A stretch of DNA of 62,142 nt, the filler included, from Asterionella formosa (taxonomy: Eukaryota): assembly GCA_002256025.1 (NCBI GenBank). It is 18 parts of 18 records of this genome, joined end to end, with 100 filler letters (N's around TTAATTAATTAA, not from the genome) between each part and the next. Parts side by side here need not be neighbours in the genome. Positions count along the whole stretch, not along the records: positions 51,903 to 55,250 come from NKIB01014218.1; 17 more parts are not named here. One strand, written 5' to 3'. The stretch's first letter is position 1. Each line of letters opens with the position of its first letter. The notes under the pieces were generated by a model. It was not told the DNA's origin. It searched no databases and was given only the letters and a program-made list of their open reading frames with translations. Below are positions 1,640 to 55,350 of this stretch, piece after piece. Made by a program: the position numbers and the translations under genes.

Positions 1640-2678
1640 TCCTCAGCTGTTTGTATGAGAGTTAGTACAGAATTCTTTGTCAGCAGTGCATCCATGGCTT
1701 CAAAAATGCAACAAAACTGACATTCAATTGATACTCTTTACCGTCACATTGGTGACACTTCATTGCTTGCTACTTCAGCCCAAGCTTCCTTTAACTTTTC
1801 GCAGTACATACTTACAACAGGTATCCAATAACTTGTCCCAAACTTCTTTATGGGGAAATTTCCTTGCATCCAGCTCACTCATAGTTGGTTTATTCCCAAG
1901 ATCCAAAACATCTTGATGATGTATCTCATCAAAGTAGACATTAATTTCTCAGTAGTATGTGCCTTGCCGCTTAACATATTTGACAGCAGTTGCAGCATTT
2001 CTTTTTTCTTATCCTTGGGAGGTTTTCCATGTTTCTTAATGATAATCTGGCATTTTTCAGAATCATCCAATAAAGTATCGGCAGGGACTGGAGATAAAAA
2101 AGCTGACAATTGGGAAGGGGATAATTCGGAATTTATGCTAGAATCATTGGCAATATCTTCTCTGGTGGCAGGAAGTGGCTTTGATAGTAGATGAGGAGAC
2201 TTCCTGGTTGAAGATTCAGGAGTAAAGAGATCTCCATTTGTTTTCAGATGCTTCTTTGGTTCTTTGGATGACCTTTTGTTGTACCCCATCATGTCTCGAA
2301 GGTCAATCATCTTTAACCAAGCAATTCTTAATGAGTGTAATATTTATCACCTTTGTTTTTTGTTTGTATCCAGAAACTTTAAAGTGAACACACATATATG
2401 AATAAGTTGTTGTAGGGATATCTGTTGAATGAGCATCTCTTTTATCATTGTCAATCTTCCCTCGCTGTCAATGAGAAAATCAGCAGAGGTGGTACTTGCA
2501 ACCCACAGATCATCCAGTTTTCTTGGTGCAGAGTAACTTTCACCATTGAGTATTCCTTGAAATTTCTTGTAGCACATTTATGCGAGAAACTTTGCTTTCC
2601 AGATGTGCCATTTAGCATCTGGCCCAGCCATCAAACGTTGCTTGGCAACCTCACAGATGTGTCTTTGTCACTTCCCAT
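1640..2678 (-). pseudogene. Degenerate Ty1/Copia gag
   Basis: ATG at 2678 just downstream of an LTR and PBS-position sequence. Reads MGSDKDTSVRLP..., WHIWKAKFLA.MCYKKFQGILNG (Copia gag N-terminus type) and a zinc-knuckle remnant KCHQCDG near 1750. Disrupted. Confidence 0.65.
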
Positions 2679-2721
2679 CGTTCCTGAATAGCCTGTGGCC
2701 TCAAAGCGTCGCTTTAAAGCG

Positions 2722-3099
2722 TGTTAAATGTTCACGTACTCCTTCCCGTCTGACGGGTATCCTCTTACGTAGGTCTTACCTGTTGTACCACTAGTTCTAT
2801 TATCTTTTGCTGCTAGTAGCCTTGGTGCTAGTTTTCGCTGTTGACCTTACTCTGTGGTCACTGTTTCTTAATTATAAGTTTAAACTAAAACTAAGTTTTA
2901 ATCCCATTCGTCGCACTTTGAGAACCTGCTCTTTGTGTTCCCTTTTCTTTGATGCAAACCTTCGTCTGATGATCTAAAACATCAATCTCATTAGCAAGCT
3001 TCTTGACATGTTCACGATTGACTCATTGGACTATACCGGGTAGTCGAGTCCACAATCCTTGTGACTCATTATAGCCATTGATGCTTTATATTCTTGACA
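2722..3099 (-). mobile_element. Copia 5' LTR (378 bp)
   Basis: Minus strand starts TGTCAAGAATAT and ends ACGGGAAGGAGTACGTGAACATTTAACA. Both ends match the 3' LTR at 22425-22830, and the interior matches 45213-45455. Confidence 0.8.
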
Positions 3100-3170
3100 T
3101 GTGTAGTGCTGGTATATATTACGAACGTACCCGAAAATAAATCAACTCTCAGCGCAACCTTTTATGGCCA

Positions 3171-3372
3171 TACATATAGTCGTAGCTGTGTACTGCACTG
3201 GTAGTTAACTAGCCCCTTCGACAAAGCTCGCGATGTACATATACCGGTACTTGAGTACAGGGTAGACTGGGTACCAGGTACCAGTACATATAGTCGTAGC
3301 TTTGTTGTGCACCGGCACCTTCGACAAAAAAGCTATGTAGCGATGTACCGGTACTCGTTTAGACTGGGTACC
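3171..3372. repeat. Diverged tandem duplication (about 100 nt x2)
   Basis: TACATATAGTCGTAGCT...CTTCGACAAA...GCGATGTAC...TAGACTGGGTACC occurs at 3171 and 3285 with different short indels. Confidence 0.8.
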
Positions 3373-3472
3373 NNNNNNNNNNNNNNNNNNNNNNNNNNNN
3401 NNNNNNNNNNNNNNNNTTAATTAATTAANNNNNNNNNNNNNNNNNNNNNNNNNNNNNNNNNNNNNNNNNNNN
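3373..3472. other. Artificial contig spacer (N-run + TTAATTAATTAA six-frame stop + N-run), first of 17
   Basis: Identical 100-nt spacers start at 3373, 6845, 10316, 13786, 17255, 20719, 24183, 27642, 31077, 34533, 37989, 41445, 44901, 48354, 51803, 55251 and 58698. The intervening contigs are about 3.33-3.37 kb, roughly size-sorted. 8533-8713 is a plain N gap without the linker. Confidence 0.98.
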
Positions 3473-4455
3473 CGCTTGGGAGTCGATGGGTCTTCAAGAA
3501 AAAGAAGGAACAAGACTTGACTACACGCTATAAGGCACGTGTGGTTGTCAAGGGATATGTTCAAATCCCCGGTGTTGATTTTACCGACTCGTTTGCACCT
3601 GTGGCTACGGATACAAGTATCAGAGTTGTCTTTGCAATCACCATGCACAAAAAGACATGGACTTTGGAGGTCATTGACGTCGAAGCATCCTTTCTTGAAG
3701 GAGACTTAGAGGAAGACATCTACCTTGAATGGCCTGAAGGCGTTGTTGAGTTTGGCTTTGAAGACAACAAGGTTGTCTCAGAAAATTGTATTCTTCTAAG
3801 TAAAGCCATGTATGGAACGGTGCAGGCTGCGCGACAGTGGTACAAGAAACTTGTGGAGCGTCTGATTCTCATTGGAATGAAACAGAGCAAAGTGGATCCA
3901 TGCATTTTCTTCTTGAAACGTGATTTGAAATTGGTTCTAATTGTTTGTATCTATGTTGATGACTGCATTGTTGCAGGAGAACAAGCCGATGTTGACTGGC
4001 TTAAGGCTGAAGCCAAGAAGCATTTCACCATAAAGGAACTCGGACCAATCAAGAAACATTTAGGAGTTTGGTATGACTGGGGAGAGGATGCTGATGGAAG
4101 ATTTCTTGAATCTACTATGGAGGATTTCGTTGAAGGAATTTTTGAAGACTATAAGAATCTCTTTGGACGTTATCCCGCAATTGCACCAACTCCCAGATTG
4201 CCAGGTGGAGCGATTTTCCTAAGCAAAAACCAACAAGTTGGATCAAGGACAAAGCATATTGATGTCAGATATCATTTCATACGTGAGAAGACTGAAGATG
4301 GATATGTTGTTGTGGTCTATGTACAAACATGTGAAAACCCTAGTGACCTGCTGTCAAAGAATGTAACTCAGAAGGTGTATGAATCCCATGCATATGATAT
4401 TTGCAATGGGACAATGGATTGTTGGAACTGGAACAGGGAGGATGTCAAGATTTAG
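3473..4455 (+). mobile_element. Ty1/Copia pol (RT fused to RNase H tail), internally deleted, 5'-truncated by contig end
   Basis: RYKARVVVKGYVQIPGVDFTDSFAPV, IDVEASFL, YVDD, then APTPRLPG joined directly to GAIFLSKNQQVGSRTKHIDVRYHF. PPT AACAGGGAGGA ends at 4442. Confidence 0.92.
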
Positions 4456-4904
4456 TACTGCGTGCATATTAGTTCAGTCGAACTAATCAATCTTGAATAA
4501 TATTCCAGCCAAAATCCCGTATTGAAATGCTGTGAGAATTTGAACAGCATTGATTGCCAAGAACTATATCAGCAAACCAAGGTAAATATTCGAATGGAGA
4601 ATGTTCTAAGTAATCAATATTTCAATGAAAGAAAGGTATATACGCAATGCAGATAGCATTGAATATTCACGATTGTTCTACTAAGTGAGTGGAGTTGAGT
4701 TGTCAGTTGAGAATTGAATGTCTTACAACACAATGAATATCTATATACAAATTTGGGAAGAGAACCTTAATAATTGGTCATGTGAACGATTACAAGATAG
4801 ATCAAATAAGCTCACAATAAGGTGGGATTAGAACAGAAGGTTTTAATACACTGAGCTTGTCTAGAAAGAGCTAGCATTGCAGTCAGACAGCAGAAGAATT
4901 TAAC
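4443..4904 (+). mobile_element. Copia 3' LTR (3' end uncertain)
   Basis: TGTCAAGA immediately follows the PPT. Candidate end ...ATTTAACA near 4904. Confidence 0.5.
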
Positions 4905-5301
4905 ATGCTTTCACATCGCGGTCGATATCTGTTCTGCAGGAGTACCTGGTACTTGGTACAGGTACATAGTACCTGTACTGATCTACCGGTAGCATCTTTT
5001 TCAAATCAGAATCGCTCGCAACCTGATGGTGGTTGGTACCGGTACCTTATACCAGGTCCATCAGGTGCCTTGTAATGCAGTACGGTAGGCTCGCTCTAGC
5101 ATGGAGCGGAGGCACTTTTCGGCTAATACCACCGTCGTACCGTAGTACGGTATAATATTCATACTAAGATATGCTTCTGGTCATAATATGTACACTATTG
5201 TAAATATATATTCCGGTATAAATATGATATATGTTAAAGAAAATACAATACCGTACAGCCATTCCTACACCAGGTACCTGTAGTCTAGTACCAGGTGTGT
5301 G

Positions 5302-47327: not shown

Positions 47328-48353
47328 TTACCTATGAAAAGGTTTGATACGACGAATATTAATTCGTTCGGTAATATGCATAGTGCGTTGAAAAGTAACT
47401 GTACCATTGGCATGTACTTGAATAATAGTATAAGGACCTCGTCCACGATCATCCAAAGTAGTAGGATTATCCAATAATATTAAAATCTCGTCACCCACTT
47501 TGTAATCATAAGATCGACGACGGAAATTTGCACGACGTAAACGTTCGTCAATTATCACCTGTCGACGTTGATGTATTAATTGTAAATCTGTAATCAAAGG
47601 AATATTTAATATCATATCACGTTGGAAAACCCATGCTCCTGGTGAAATACGTAATATACTATGAATAGTAGCTCGAGCTGCATATGACGCAGCTGCAAAA
47701 CATGTATCCACAATATTTTGGGCTTGAAATTCATTGATTGGAGGATGAGCCTTTAACATAACTCGTAGACTATTGCTGATAGATTGATGGAAACGTTCAC
47801 AGATAGCATTTGCTTGTGGATTCTTTACTGTGGTAGTCACATCTTTGATTCCATTCAATACTAACATGTGTAAGAAAGGAGCACCAGTAAATTCACCTCC
47901 ATTGTCATGTATACAACGTTCTGGACGGGGATATCTGGCTAACCAATCATTTTCAAATTTCATTGCAATATATTCTGATGTTTTATTGATGATACGTGAA
48001 ATTTCTGCTAAATTGGTGACTGTGTCAATACAAGTTAGAGCACGAAATTCAATCGTTTGAGCAGCCACTGTTATCTTCCATGGACCAATTAGATCTACTG
48101 CGACTTCTGACCATGGTAATAATAATGCATTCCTGGGTGGAAGTTCACCAAAACCAGTACCAGGTAATTTTGTACGTTGACATGCTTCACATACTCTTAC
48201 AATATGTTCCACTCTTGTTTTTAATATAGGGTGATAAAAATGTGTAGCAATTGTAGCATTTAATCTTGTCATACCCACATGAGCTAACATCTGATGATAC
48301 CAATTAATAATAGGATCCAATAATGATGTAGGAATAGCAATACGCCAAGTATC
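47328..48353 (-). mobile_element. Ty3/Gypsy integrase (pol C-terminus), 5'-truncated
   Basis: HHCC (WYHQMLAHVG...CEACQ), DDE (VDLIGP, HDNGGEF, QANAICER) and GPY motif. PPT-like GGGAGAG followed by TG at 47301. Confidence 0.93.
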
Positions 48354-51802: not shown

Positions 51803-51902
51803 NNNNNNNNNNNNNNNNNNNNNNNNNNNNNNNNNNNNNNNNNNNNTTAATTAATTAANNNNNNNNNNNNNNNNNNNNNNNNNNNNNNNNNNNNNNNNNN
51901 NN

Positions 51903-52524
51903 AGATGATGTCGGCAAGATGGTTTGTCGCGCGATTTTGTGTGATATCTTTGCGCTCCTGAAAGAAGCGAATGTCTTGGATGCGTAGCAGTTTGGTGCGT
52001 CGTTCACCGTGGATGGTCAAGTATTCACATGAGCGCATCGCGAAGAAAAATGCTAAGATAATGAGTGGGCCCATGCAAGTGTCGACCGGTGTTGCGTGTT
52101 GAAAGTATAATTTTAAAATAAATTCGATTGTTAATGCTCGTTGATGTTTAACGGCTGGATCGGTATGTCGATAAGCGGAGAACTGGAGGCGTAGAATTCG
52201 GTGAGTCTTGCCGTGTATGTTTGTTGCGGGGTCAGGTCTGTCGTTCTCCACAAAGGTCGCCGATAGAGATGCGATGGTGTCCCGGACTGTCGCTGATGCC
52301 AGAGGAGTGTCTCGATGTGTACTGAACTCGGCCTGCCGGACGGCATGCGCGAATGCTCCGATGAGTCGAATGCGTTGTTCTGGTGAGAGGTTGGCGAGGA
52401 ATGGATCGGTGACATCACAAAATCCAATGGACGCAAGGAATTCGGTCCAGATTCGGAAGACGCGATTGAGCTTCGCCGTGGTGTTAGCTTGAAGTCCTTG
52501 GGAGCGCGCCCGATCTGCATCCAT
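51903..52524 (-). CDS. Tyrosine recombinase of a YR retrotransposon (3'-truncated)
   Basis: TIASLSATFVENDRPDP, DPAVKHQRAL, ILAFFFAMRSCEY (first catalytic Arg). Overlaps the last 394 nt of pol in another frame, as in DIRS/Ngaro elements. Confidence 0.88.
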
Positions 52525-54830
52525 AAGGTAAGCTTGGAGGCGATGTCGGTGGGGAGCGGCGAGATGGAGAAATTCGGGGGCATCTGGTGGGTGGCCGAGT
52601 GATGGATGAGGTGTGTTAGTTGTGCATTTGATAGATGATGGTCACGAGAGAGGGCATCGGCTATCACGTTGTCATCTCCTGGGATCCATTGGCTGTAGCT
52701 ACACGCCTGGGTTTGCTCGAGGATCGCGGCTAGCCAGCGAGAGATTGCTAAATGGGTCGATTTTTCTTGACCTTGAAACCGTGCGCCACCGCGGTGAAGC
52801 CAATAATCCGCCGTCGAGCTGTCCAGTTGGGAGAGAATGCAGTCGTCGGGTCTGATGTTACCGACTGCGGCTTCAGTTGCAATGGTGGTGATGGATGCAA
52901 GGTACTCCAGTAGGTTCAGCGACAGATGTCCCCGACATTCTGTTGGAATTTCGAATCGCCAGGCTCGGCCCGATGTGAGCGAGAACCCTCCGATTCCGTG
53001 TTGGCAGGCGTCGGCACGCAGGAGGATGGTGGGAACACGTAGTGTTAGTCGGTTTAGGCTGATTCCTTGGCTTGCGGTACGTAAGAAGGTGAGCCATTGC
53101 CGCAATTCTTCCTTTTGTAATTCCGATAATGGAATTCTTTTTCCGCTGACCCTTGCTCGCCGTTCGGCACGTCGGAGATGGCATAGAAAGGCACGAGCGG
53201 TTGGGATCACATACGAGGCATGGTTCAGTCGACCGATCGTGGTCGCTAATACTTCACAATCAACCGTGGGCAACTGTAGTATGCGGTCAATTTCCGCATT
53301 CCAGGACGTGAGTTTATCGTGGGGGAGGCGTAGTCGAAGGGTGCGTGTGTTCACCTCCCATCCTAAGATTATCTTGGATTCTTCTGGGGAGCCTTCTGCT
53401 GTCATTTTTTCGAACGCGAGTAGATCTTCACGTTGTAGGGGTTCGGATTCAGCTATAGGTCTGCCCAACAGATGTAGCATAAGCAGTGTAATTCGTGAAC
53501 CTTTCCATATAGCTGTCGGATTATCCAAGAAACACGTAAATAGATCGTCTAGATAACATTCAGTAAACGGTGCTAGGTCAGCGTCGATCGCTACTGTCGT
53601 GGGTTGTGCTGGTTCACAAGTTGACCTAGTGTTGAGGTACTTTGGCATGGTGACGTATTTTTGTTGGTGCGGGGATTCCAGTGTGGGCGTGGACTCCGAG
53701 TTCCATCGGTCGCAACGTGATAACAAATTGCACGTGTCGCATGCTAGTTCAGAGACATCGCTCCACATGCTTGGGTTTGGTGCCCCCCCGAAAGTCATCC
53801 GTAAAGCGAGAAGCGCTATGTCATCGATAATGACTACGGCCTGTGACGCTGTGAGACTCGATGTATGTAGGCGGCGATACGCGGCTTTAAAATCTAATTT
53901 AGTCATTAGAATTCGAGTGTCCGGATAGATTCTTCTTAGATCCACTATGTAGTGAATAAATCGTCTCAGTGCGGTGCCGTATCTACACGGTGTCAGCGAG
54001 TCAAATATGACACGTGCATTGACTGAAGTCCCTGGGGAGAACTCGAATGATTGGTCGTGGGTCAGCCGGTCTTTGGGTATTATTTCCCCGTGTGCGTTGA
54101 TCGTGGCTTGCGTCACTAGACCTATCGGCGCTACAACAGCGTGTGGTAGTAGGCGGATATTTTCCGGTGGGAGTGGGAGTTGCCAGCCTCTGTCGACTTC
54201 TTTGATTAGAAGTTTCGTAACTATTTCATGTTTAAGTTTCGCCGATGTGTGGTTGCCTCGCGCGACGGCGAGCTCCAAGTCGTGTAGCCTCTGCTCGTCC
54301 GGTAGAGGTTTGAGCGGGAATTCTACACCAGTCGTGATGAGAGTGACGAAACGTCCCCACAGCGGATGGTAGGATAGTAGAGGACGCAGTAGGTGTAATG
54401 CTCGGAATTCCGAACCTATACTGAGCGGGGAGTTGGCCTGGCTCGCAATTGCCTTGGTAATGTCTAGGTTGAACTGTACTAGTATCGCCCAGTTGTGGTT
54501 TGCCGCCTCCGTACTCCATTCGAAACGAAATGTCGGTGTGTTCATATGCGGTGATGGAGTATCTAGAATGCAATTGATGTGTCGGAGCAACTCGTTTTCC
54601 AAAGTATGGCGTGATGTGTGTTGTTCGATGGTGGGGCTGGCGGGGAGTGGGGCTATTCGTGCAAATTGCCGCGGAGTGTCGTGGTGGCGGTCGGGCGAGT
54701 TTGTGTCTGTGCTGTCTGGTACGCAAACATCTGTAGCTAGTATTGTGTCGTGATCTGTACAGTCGGAATCGCTACCACCGGTATGGTAGCTTGACTTACC
54801 AAGGATAGTTTCATTGTTAGGTTGTGGCAT
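52131..54830 (-). CDS. RT-RNase H of a DIRS/Ngaro-type retrotransposon (frame open upstream to 55160)
   Basis: RLTHDQS, KLDFKAAYRRL, MTFGGAPNP, YLDD, ILGW; RNase H ADAC..GIGG, NLLEYLAS, DSSTA, DNVIADALSR. No methyltransferase domain is visible. Confidence 0.92.
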   Translation of the reverse strand: MPQPNNETILGKSSYHTGGSDSDCTDHDTILATDVCVPDSTDTNSPDRHHDTPRQFARIAPLPASPTIEQHTSRHTLENELLRHINCILDTPSPHMNTPTFRFEWSTEAANHNWAILVQFNLDITKAIASQANSPLSIGSEFRALHLLRPLLSYHPLWGRFVTLITTGVEFPLKPLPDEQRLHDLELAVARGNHTSAKLKHEIVTKLLIKEVDRGWQLPLPPENIRLLPHAVVAPIGLVTQATINAHGEIIPKDRLTHDQSFEFSPGTSVNARVIFDSLTPCRYGTALRRFIHYIVDLRRIYPDTRILMTKLDFKAAYRRLHTSSLTASQAVVIIDDIALLALRMTFGGAPNPSMWSDVSELACDTCNLLSRCDRWNSESTPTLESPHQQKYVTMPKYLNTRSTCEPAQPTTVAIDADLAPFTECYLDDLFTCFLDNPTAIWKGSRITLLMLHLLGRPIAESEPLQREDLLAFEKMTAEGSPEESKIILGWEVNTRTLRLRLPHDKLTSWNAEIDRILQLPTVDCEVLATTIGRLNHASYVIPTARAFLCHLRRAERRARVSGKRIPLSELQKEELRQWLTFLRTASQGISLNRLTLRVPTILLRADACQHGIGGFSLTSGRAWRFEIPTECRGHLSLNLLEYLASITTIATEAAVGNIRPDDCILSQLDSSTADYWLHRGGARFQGQEKSTHLAISRWLAAILEQTQACSYSQWIPGDDNVIADALSRDHHLSNAQLTHLIHHSATHQMPPNFSISPLPTDIASKLTLWMQIGRAPKDFKLTPRRSSIASSESGPNSLRPLDFVMSPIHSSPTSHQNNAFDSSEHSRMPSGRPSSVHIETLLWHQRQSGTPSHLYRRPLWRTTDLTPQQTYTARLTEFYASSSPLIDIPIQPLNINEH

Positions 54831-55160
54831 CCGTGTGCTGGAGTGTAGCAGATGTGTGGGTCGTGCCAGGTACGGTGGTGGGTGCGGTAGTGGTGATATC
54901 GGTAGTGGCGGTAAGGCCGTTATCCTGATACAACGTGCTGAGTCCGTATTCTGATCTCGTATACGTGCGAAAAACTTCGTGCGTGATGTGGTTAATAATT
55001 TTGAGATATCGGATGGACGAATCTTTCCCGACTCGGTGATGGTAAGTTTTGGAATTGTCGTCGTCTCGATCTTGTGCGCTACTATTGACGATGAACCGCG
55101 ATAGACTGTTAAATGCCTCGTTACTGAATGCGTTACAGGGACTACCCGGGTGTGCCCTAG

Positions 55161-55250
55161 TCAATTTGATGTGTTCGAACTGCGTGGTGTGGTCGATGTC
55201 ACATCGCGAATGGCCTCGGTGAAAAATGTTGCAAATGCTTTTTTGTTGTC
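55161..55250 (-). CDS. Putative gag/ORF1 C-terminus of the YR retrotransposon
   Basis: DNKKAFATFFTEAIRDVTSTTPRSSNTSN* is in the same frame as pol. The stop TGA is at 55163-55161. Confidence 0.55.
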   Translation of the reverse strand, partial: DNKKAFATFFTEAIRDVTSTTPRSSNTSN

Positions 55251-55350
55251 NNNNNNNNNNNNNNNNNNNNNNNNNNNNNNNNNNNNNNNNNNNNTTAATT
55301 AATTAANNNNNNNNNNNNNNNNNNNNNNNNNNNNNNNNNNNNNNNNNNNN

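Follow-up and report, generated by a model that had tools for sequence, protein, structure and literature searches.

Readthrough of an in-frame stop codon between gag and pol is textbook knowledge for certain retroviruses; in viruses and vertebrates alike, UGA-CUAG and UGA-CGG are well-studied contexts. In the available portions of Firth and Brierley (2012; PMC3542737), readthrough signals are divided into type I, with the context CARYYA; type II, in which CUA or CGG comes after UGA and a stem-loop is often present about 8 nucleotides (nt) 3′ of the stop; and type III, consisting of UAG-G and a structure, a type that includes gammaretrovirus Gag-Pol. Type II examples given there and in the accessible part of Loughran et al. 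(2014; PMC4132726), where UGA-CUAG readthrough in four mammalian genes is described, are alphavirus replicase, tobravirus and coltivirus genes, OPRL1, OPRK1, AQP4, and MAPK10. In this article, a tyrosine recombinase (YR) retrotransposon from the diatom Asterionella formosa (NCBI GenBank assembly GCA_002256025.1) is analyzed, located at positions 51903-55250 (record NKIB01014218.1) of a stretch of 62,142 nt, which is referred to as the window and on which coordinates are counted unless a contig is named. On the minus strand, an upstream open reading frame (ORF1) is separated from pol by one in-frame TGA followed by CTAG, and programmed UGA readthrough leading to an ORF1-Pol fusion is considered the best explanation, with a probability of roughly 0.8. 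This reading is based on the in-frame layout, its conservation, the bias in stop codon and context, a covarying hairpin in one clade of relatives (clade III), relatives with fused or -1 shifted genes, and unspliced contigs from RNA libraries.

Among the known types, the closest correspondence is with type II readthrough. The UGA_CUAG of the window element is like that of OPRL1 and of Ross River virus (UGA_CUAGGC), according to the excerpts available from the two sources above; five related junctions carry UGA-CGG, clade III has a stem-loop about 7-8 nt 3′ of the stop, and the context is conserved at the nucleotide level. It differs from the described cases in its diatom host and in concerning a retroelement gene, and no significant 3′ structure is found in the window clade. 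With Gag-Pol of murine leukemia virus (MuLV; type III, as far as covered in PMC3542737), the element shares one in-frame stop between the structural and reverse transcriptase (RT) genes, an arrangement in which the fusion sets a low Pol:Gag ratio, and the best structural matches of the pol model are the RTs of Moloney murine leukemia virus (MMLV) and xenotropic murine leukemia virus-related virus (XMRV). The signals differ, since MuLV employs UAG-G and a compact pseudoknot, whereas the window element would employ UGA-C and linear context; moreover, neither a protease nor a DDE integrase is seen in the element, for which integration would use the tyrosine recombinase. Like Ngaro-like members of the DIRS order, as portrayed in the parts of PMC6681497 and PMC7192593 at hand, the element has three ORFs (ORF1, RT/RNase H, and YR), a pol/YR overlap, and no methyltransferase found; unlike them, its ORF1 is very long (~700 aa) and its RT is invisible to Pfam. 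DIRS/Ngaro-like elements have been reported in the stramenopile Ectocarpus (PMC3145265, partial text). In-frame stop readthrough is not mentioned in the available parts of PMC3266345, PMC7192593, and PMC6681497, and no report of readthrough in DIRS/Ngaro elements appeared in the openly accessible literature searched, so that an earlier description is possible.

The sequence at the junction agrees with the original prediction in several respects. On the minus strand, the upstream frame ends in …AAT TGA (55163-55161) and is followed by CTA GGG CAC… (CTAGGGCAC); as had been stated, the frame then remains open for 110 codons containing neither ATG nor stop until the ATG of the 899-codon pol at 54830, an offset of 330 nt. 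The features of the junction are as follows.

55164-55250, minus strand: final 29 codons of ORF1, which is truncated at the contig end; translation DNKKAFATFFTEAIRDVTSTTPRSSNTSN (…TSTTPRSSNTSN), identical to the ORF1 end of contigs L001 and L004
55161-55163, minus strand: TGA separating ORF1 from pol in frame, proposed as the codon that is read through, kept in L001, L004, L008, L013, and L012
55153-55160, minus strand: CTAGGGCA directly 3′ of the stop, forming with TGA an 11-nt block invariant in three lineages in alignments of homologues
54831-55160, minus strand: linker of 110 sense codons from the stop to the first ATG, proline-rich and open in the pol frame
52131-54830, minus strand: pol as annotated by gene callers, beginning at the ATG (54830-54828) and comprising 899 codons, TAA stop included

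Only the 29 upstream codons already noted in the prediction are visible here because the window is a chain of short contigs. The whole junction region is present in two metagenome contigs, L001 (100% identical) and L004 (99%), in which the same frame extends to an ORF1 of 719 codons from stop to stop (L001 1361-3517; L004 1931-4087), or 698 codons from the first ATG. In both, ORF1 (719 codons) and pol (1009 codons) thus lie in one frame with exactly one stop between them, a match which, as judged from these alignments, exceeds chance. A different location of the upstream gene was considered and rejected: an ORF of 141-155 codons in another frame crosses the junction (window 54817-55248, minus strand, frame +2; L001 3403-3870) and is absent from L008 and L012. 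The 141-codon version in the window, which ends just past the pol ATG, is probably fortuitous.

Under programmed readthrough, most ribosomes would stop at the TGA (55163-55161) and release ORF1, a protein of ~700 aa with a C-terminal Cys/His motif, while a minority would insert an amino acid at UGA, aided by the 3′ context CUAGGGCA. The latter ribosomes would translate the 110-codon linker and then the RT/RNase H gene, so that a ~1,700-aa ORF1-Pol fusion results, which may stay uncleaved (no protease gene is seen). Readthrough by ribosomes, its frequency, and the identity of the inserted residue are what we infer from comparison alone.

For this comparison, a protein search with the 1009-codon stop-to-stop pol frame as the query gave 50 relatives from 8000 scored candidates, and a scan of metagenome contigs for relatives of the element gave 79 loci, designated by L-numbers. 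Within the window clade, TGACTAGGGCA (11-mer) is invariant in three lineages, namely the window element with L001 and L004, L008/L013, and L012, and TGA-CTAG is kept at the same place even though pol identity to the window element is 65% in L008/L013 and 58% in L012. The flanks of the 11-mer have diverged to 26-51% protein identity, and directly after the stop the peptide LG[HQ]xRV is conserved. The alignments therefore indicate that the stop and its 3′ context are conserved beyond coding need in this clade. The conservation of in-frame TGA-CTAG in homologues, which the original prediction proposed as a check, was thus observed; neither a sense codon at this site, nor a variable frame relationship, nor a gag in another frame was found in the window clade, and the stop is not private to the window copy. 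That the TGA is a nonsense mutation private to a dead copy, for which the truncation of the window copy might be cited, is accordingly refuted and retains next to no probability: the in-frame TGA recurs in independently made assemblies and in lineages whose pol identity is as low as 33%, with ORF1 and pol otherwise intact.

The 79 loci were sorted by rule. One in-frame stop between ORF1 and pol was assigned to 18 loci (17 TGA and 1 TAG, the doubtful L058 included), six others were in frame and had an additional stop ahead of the pol core, and in four the junction was kept with the pol core later out of frame (three TGA and L074). ORF1 overlapped pol, with pol at -1, in eight loci; a doubtful '+1' was assigned to one (L005), ORF1 in another frame with a gap to four, and fused genes to two. 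The upstream part was unclear or short in 18 loci, the pol frame was open to the contig start with less than 2 kb upstream in 15, and no N-terminal pol match was present in three. An assignment of L075 as fused was withdrawn, the upstream DNA being too short. In a quick tree of 74 pol segments, the in-frame stop occurs in three of four major clades, and the -1 layout is located in one well-supported clade.

To characterize the stop itself, 23 distinct junctions were picked by hand, leaving out the near-identical L004, L013, L015, and L028 and the doubtful L058, adding L033 and L072 (17 and 7 upstream codons only) since they carry the clade hairpin, and retaining L049, L063, L079, and L077 despite a second stop. 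The junction stops consist of 22 TGA, one TAG, and no TAA, compared with 6 TGA, 6 TAG, and 11 TAA among the pol terminators of the 23 lineages (Fisher p 1.7e-6, a value that overstates independence, as the junctions are related; this and the choice by hand weigh against the readthrough reading). In the -1 clade, the ORF1 stops are mixed (3 TAG, 2 TAA, and 1 TGA). The codon after the junction stop is CGG in five, CTA in four, and CAA in three of the 23 junctions, the last in the form CAAUUA or CAAUCA, and these codons match type II and type I readthrough contexts. The leaky character that the prediction ascribed to UGA-CUA(G) is documented in the consulted parts of PMC4132726 and PMC3542737.

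An alternative in which the TGA is an ordinary terminator would have pol made alone, via the ATG at 54830, a non-AUG codon, or reinitiation, with the shared frame as inherited baggage. An ATG with an 899-codon ORF does exist, identical 899-aa proteins have been called in public data (P0002, in a public collection, is 899 aa long and identical to pol as called), the linker is poorly conserved, and YR retroelements have been described with separate or overlapping ORFs in the available text of PMC3266345 and PMC7192593. This alternative is nevertheless unlikely given that at least 18 of the loci showing the junction share this frame and have exactly one stop, that the strong TGA bias is present at the junction only, and that LG[HQ]xRV is kept right after the stop, together with the covarying hairpin of clade III and the fused and -1 relatives described below. 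The start codon also speaks against it, as the first in-frame ATG lies 38-327 codons past the stop across lineages and falls within the conserved core in three of them, 5-24 codons inside the aligned pol core (L024, L027/L028, and L060); this varied position argues against a conserved internal start. The linker motifs LG[HQ]xRV, KFFARI, and LPPLP are common to L008, L012, and P0003, the latter a 70% identical protein whose called start sits within the 110-codon spacer and which aligns there (KFFARI, LPPLP).

Removal of the stop from a minority of transcripts by a small intron or an RNA edit can be examined with contigs from RNA libraries. The region L001:2900-4100 is present in 20 runs from 17 studies, six of the runs being on record as RNA, and metatranscriptome contigs from three runs in three studies are colinear over the stop (L001 3518-3520): X15 (2590-3669), X16 (3183-4921, depth ~87), and X17 (2595-4034). 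Neither a variant on the TGA nor a joint removing the stop is among those listed for these contigs, 59 further differences standing outside the listing, and the contigs, which may hold DNA and may drop rare spliced or edited forms, are no proof of transcription, which counts against relying on them for readthrough. The only nearby joint, from 3539 to 4562 in one X16 contig and with ends TC..GT, begins after the stop, and coding conservation reaches the stop on both sides. A rare spliced or edited RNA could be dropped from such contigs; with the colinearity of all three, an intron or edit is nonetheless very improbable.

Evidence for RNA structure 3′ of the stop comes from clade III (10 sequences), in which a 10-bp hairpin starts 7 nt past the stop. 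In this hairpin, 99% of cells are paired, compared with 30-51% in slid controls, and four pairs show compensatory changes (12 cells), a level reached in 0/500 shuffles; RNAalifold returns the same structure. A Ser/Pro codon (UCG/CCG) in the 5′ arm covaries with a synonymous Arg codon (CGA/CGG) in the 3′ arm. When the 23 junctions are taken together, the first 60 nt 3′ of the stop fold more stably than 132 windows internal to pol (mean z-score -0.84 versus -0.08; Mann-Whitney p 8e-4). Elements of selenocysteine redefinition consist of a UGA and then a nearby hairpin, and the clade III arrangement resembles them. A reading of UGA as selenocysteine, or as a sense codon in the host, is nevertheless about as improbable as the removal of the stop from the RNA: no selenocysteine insertion sequence (SECIS) was found in L001 by Rfam, TGA terminates 6/23 pol ORFs, and there is one in-frame TGA in ~1,700 codons. 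The Rfam search covered both strands of the 6.6-kb L001 with 4227 families at E up to 1 and found no SECIS and no other family.

Besides the limits attached above to the Fisher test and the RNA-library contigs, several observations weigh against programmed readthrough, beginning with the structure in the window lineage itself. There, the 60-nt segment 3′ of the stop carries no excess structure (z +0.20); the 42-nt window junction, at -7.5 kcal/mol, folds no better than shuffles (z +0.54), and a 107-nt segment gives z +0.98. The local hairpin that had been proposed here (GACTA/TAGTC, GGG/CCC) did not hold: its segments exist, but their stability does not exceed that of shuffles, and the pairs are lost in L008 and L012; this hairpin does not go beyond chance. 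One further candidate is the following.

55096-55149, minus strand: weak candidate long-range stem, 11 nt past the stop, pairing CCGGGUAG (55149-55142) with CUAUCGCGG (55104-55096)

RNAalifold on three sequences keeps this stem, with one compensatory pair, and its folding energy is no better than that of shuffles. A stem homologous to that of clade IV, with GGGCA as its 5′ arm, was also tried and rejected, as no complement of at least 5 nt lies within 260 nt in L001, L008, and L012. The comparison suggests that the readthrough signal in the window element is most likely the linear context, which fits the finding, in the part of PMC4132726 at hand, that UGA-CUAG with ~12 nt suffices in vertebrate genes.

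Also on the opposing side, the bias toward C at position +4 is not significant (15/23 junctions versus 9/23 pol ends, p 0.14), and the dN/dS ratio (nonsynonymous to synonymous substitution rates) of the linker is weakly below 1, at about 0.5-0.7 against L008 and 0.9 between L008 and L012, from poor alignments. The ATG at 54830 does exist, and gene callers start pol there. In six loci a second in-frame stop occurs 6-155 codons further on. Separately, it was observed that in L049 (4260, 4431), L063 (671), L079 (462, 930), and L077 (3685) the second stop lies 56-155 codons past the first, and that the first is in a CAAUUA or CAAUCA context, which could reflect decay or double readthrough. Finally, the identity of ORF1 as Gag lacks support in the searches made, in that Pfam gave no match and Foldseek gave none in the PDB at E ≤0.001. 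Of the Gag-Pol readthrough originally proposed, the readthrough fusion is thus supported by the conserved TGA-CTAG and by ORF1 in frame, and the name Gag and the local hairpin are not.

Further evidence bearing on programmed readthrough is provided by relatives in which ORF1 and pol are joined by other routes. L017 (3-5345) and L018 (328-5835), which belong to a sister clade, each contain a single ORF of 1781-1836 codons holding both the ORF1 Cys/His motif and pol. Among public proteins, P0023 (1700 aa, in an 88-member cluster) and P0028 (1586 aa) are ORF1-Pol as one ORF, and in P0022, P0033, P0047, and P0051 the ORF1 C-terminus is joined to pol, although NCBI gene models among these fused proteins could contain predicted introns. 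In the -1 clade, the overlap contains a conserved GGAUUUU, a spacer of 6-7 nt, and a stem GGG(G)CAG…CUGCCC(C) with varying, covarying extensions. Its members are L021 (2764-2863), L025 (6473-), L026 (3526-), L038 (2335-), L047 (2168-), and L074 (2514-), as well as L023, L045, and L057. The minimum free energy z-scores range from -0.9 to -4.8 in six -1 lineages, with 8/11 folded windows at or below -1.6, and GGAUUUU is immediately followed by the ORF1 stop in several members. From these alignments, GGAUUUU and the stem are likely to signal a -1 frameshift, the slippery site being non-canonical.

Totivirus Gag-Pol stays uncleaved, and totiviruses, like the element, have no protease. The -1 frameshift Gag-Pol of retroviruses and totiviruses, in the portion of PMC3542737 available, resembles the sister clade in having pol at -1, a U-rich site, a spacer of 6-7 nt, and a stem; the window element differs in that it does not frameshift, and GGAUUUU is not a canonical X_XXY_YYZ heptamer. 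It appears slightly better than an even chance that this diatom YR family always makes an ORF1-Pol fusion and has switched the method several times, with readthrough in three clades, a -1 shift in the fourth, and plain fusion in a subclade. Under such switching, the family would employ virus-like type I, II, and III contexts together with covarying hairpins of its own, and the fusion would act uncleaved, without a protease.

The other features of the element are as follows.

51903-55250, minus strand: short contig with a retroelement fragment (the 3′ end of ORF1, pol, and the beginning of the recombinase ORF), bounded by linkers on both sides (N runs 51859-51902 and 55251-55294)
52461-54599, minus strand: RT core and RNase H-like C-terminal part, from the AlphaFold model, Foldseek, and invariant columns
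51903-52641, minus strand: 5′ portion of the tyrosine recombinase gene (third ORF), in another frame, overlapping the pol end and cut by the linker

The AlphaFold model of pol residues 188-900, built on a 33-sequence alignment, has a predicted local distance difference test score (pLDDT) of 90.1 and a predicted template modeling score (pTM) of 0.88. Its top Foldseek matches in the PDB are the RTs of MMLV, XMRV, foamy virus, Ty3, and cauliflower mosaic virus (E 3e-11 to 2e-9), and Y-x-D-D is invariant in the alignment; the model thus identifies pol as an RT of the long terminal repeat (LTR) retroelement type. In the putative RNase H region, the columns D717, E752, D780, and D835/D840 are invariant, and the model shows a beta-sheet and helices. 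Pfam gave no match on pol with the linker, and a PDB sequence search with pol gave one weak RT row only (E 0.37). No methyltransferase domain was found in pol by Pfam, and what follows RNase H is a short, low-complexity stretch.

The third ORF is complete in L004 (90-1361, 424 codons). Pfam Phage_integrase matches it in 9/16 family members, with a best E of 1.1e-4 and all matches below the curated cut-off, and R203, R343 (within HxxR), and Y374 are invariant, giving the R..HxxR..Y catalytic pattern. A PDB sequence search with the YR found nothing, and a profile search gave only spurious green fluorescent protein rows. In every lineage examined (the window and 23 loci), the recombinase ORF overlaps the pol 3′ end by about 200-690 nt in a different frame.

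ORF1 carries an invariant C-x6-G-x-C-x3-C-x5-H motif 35-60 residues before its C-terminus in 20 lineages. Its model (L001 1424-3517; pLDDT 73, pTM 0.40) is beta-rich in its N-terminal part and also has a long helical part. The hallmarks of a retroviral-type Gag, a capsid fold and a CCHC zinc knuckle, were not found in ORF1, which has the Cys/His motif only; since ORF1 has no fold or Pfam match, 'Gag' serves as a positional label only, and ORF1 may represent a structural protein of a kind new among retroelements. Neither a protease nor a DDE integrase nor a methyltransferase is seen in the element. Ngaro-like elements have the ORF order ORF1, RT/RNase H, YR. The order ORF1-RT/RH-YR fits the Ngaro-like members of the DIRS order better than the DIRS1-like/PAT-like subgroup.

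Regarding the sources, the window contains 35 N runs, mostly paired runs of 44 N flanking TTAATTAATTAA and ~3.4 kb apart; it consists of chained small contigs of ~3.4 kb with N44-TTAATTAATTAA-N44 linkers and is no single chromosome stretch, and any feature crossing a linker within it is an assembly artefact. No further copy of the retroelement is found elsewhere in the window. A neighboring contig carries an LTR-retrotransposon integrase fragment (47328-48353, minus strand) with a Pfam match to Integrase_H2C2 (E 1.9e-10, above the cut-off) and a weak match to rve; this fragment is unrelated to the YR element. The ends of L004 have an exact 83-nt wrap-around repeat, giving a unit of 6520 bp, and L001 and L004 are circular permutations of one unit containing ORF1, pol, the recombinase ORF, and ~0.6 kb of non-coding DNA; no inverted repeat of at least 20 nt is present in L004. 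In RNA and DNA contigs, loose ends, branches, and joints accumulate shortly before ORF1 (L001 1340-1511), probably the site of the element termini or split repeats. Three protein relatives are named Fragilaria crotonensis, and a neighboring ESM Atlas cluster is labeled Bacillariophyta, which makes a diatom host plausible. When viral contigs were scanned by pattern for the junction motif, two matches without ORF1 or pol similarity came up, which were discarded as chance.

If programmed readthrough is true of this element, the pol of the family is mis-annotated from an internal ATG, as in the 899-aa entries of public data, and the element would show how a retroelement without a protease sets its ORF1:Pol ratio. 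The junctions would also provide compact, naturally tuned recoding signals usable in diatom genetics, and the family would offer a clean example of switching among readthrough, frameshift, and fusion. Should such switching hold across the family, which is large and unannotated, it would be, among DIRS-order elements, the first recoding system on record and would furnish a natural set of readthrough and frameshift signals for diatoms.

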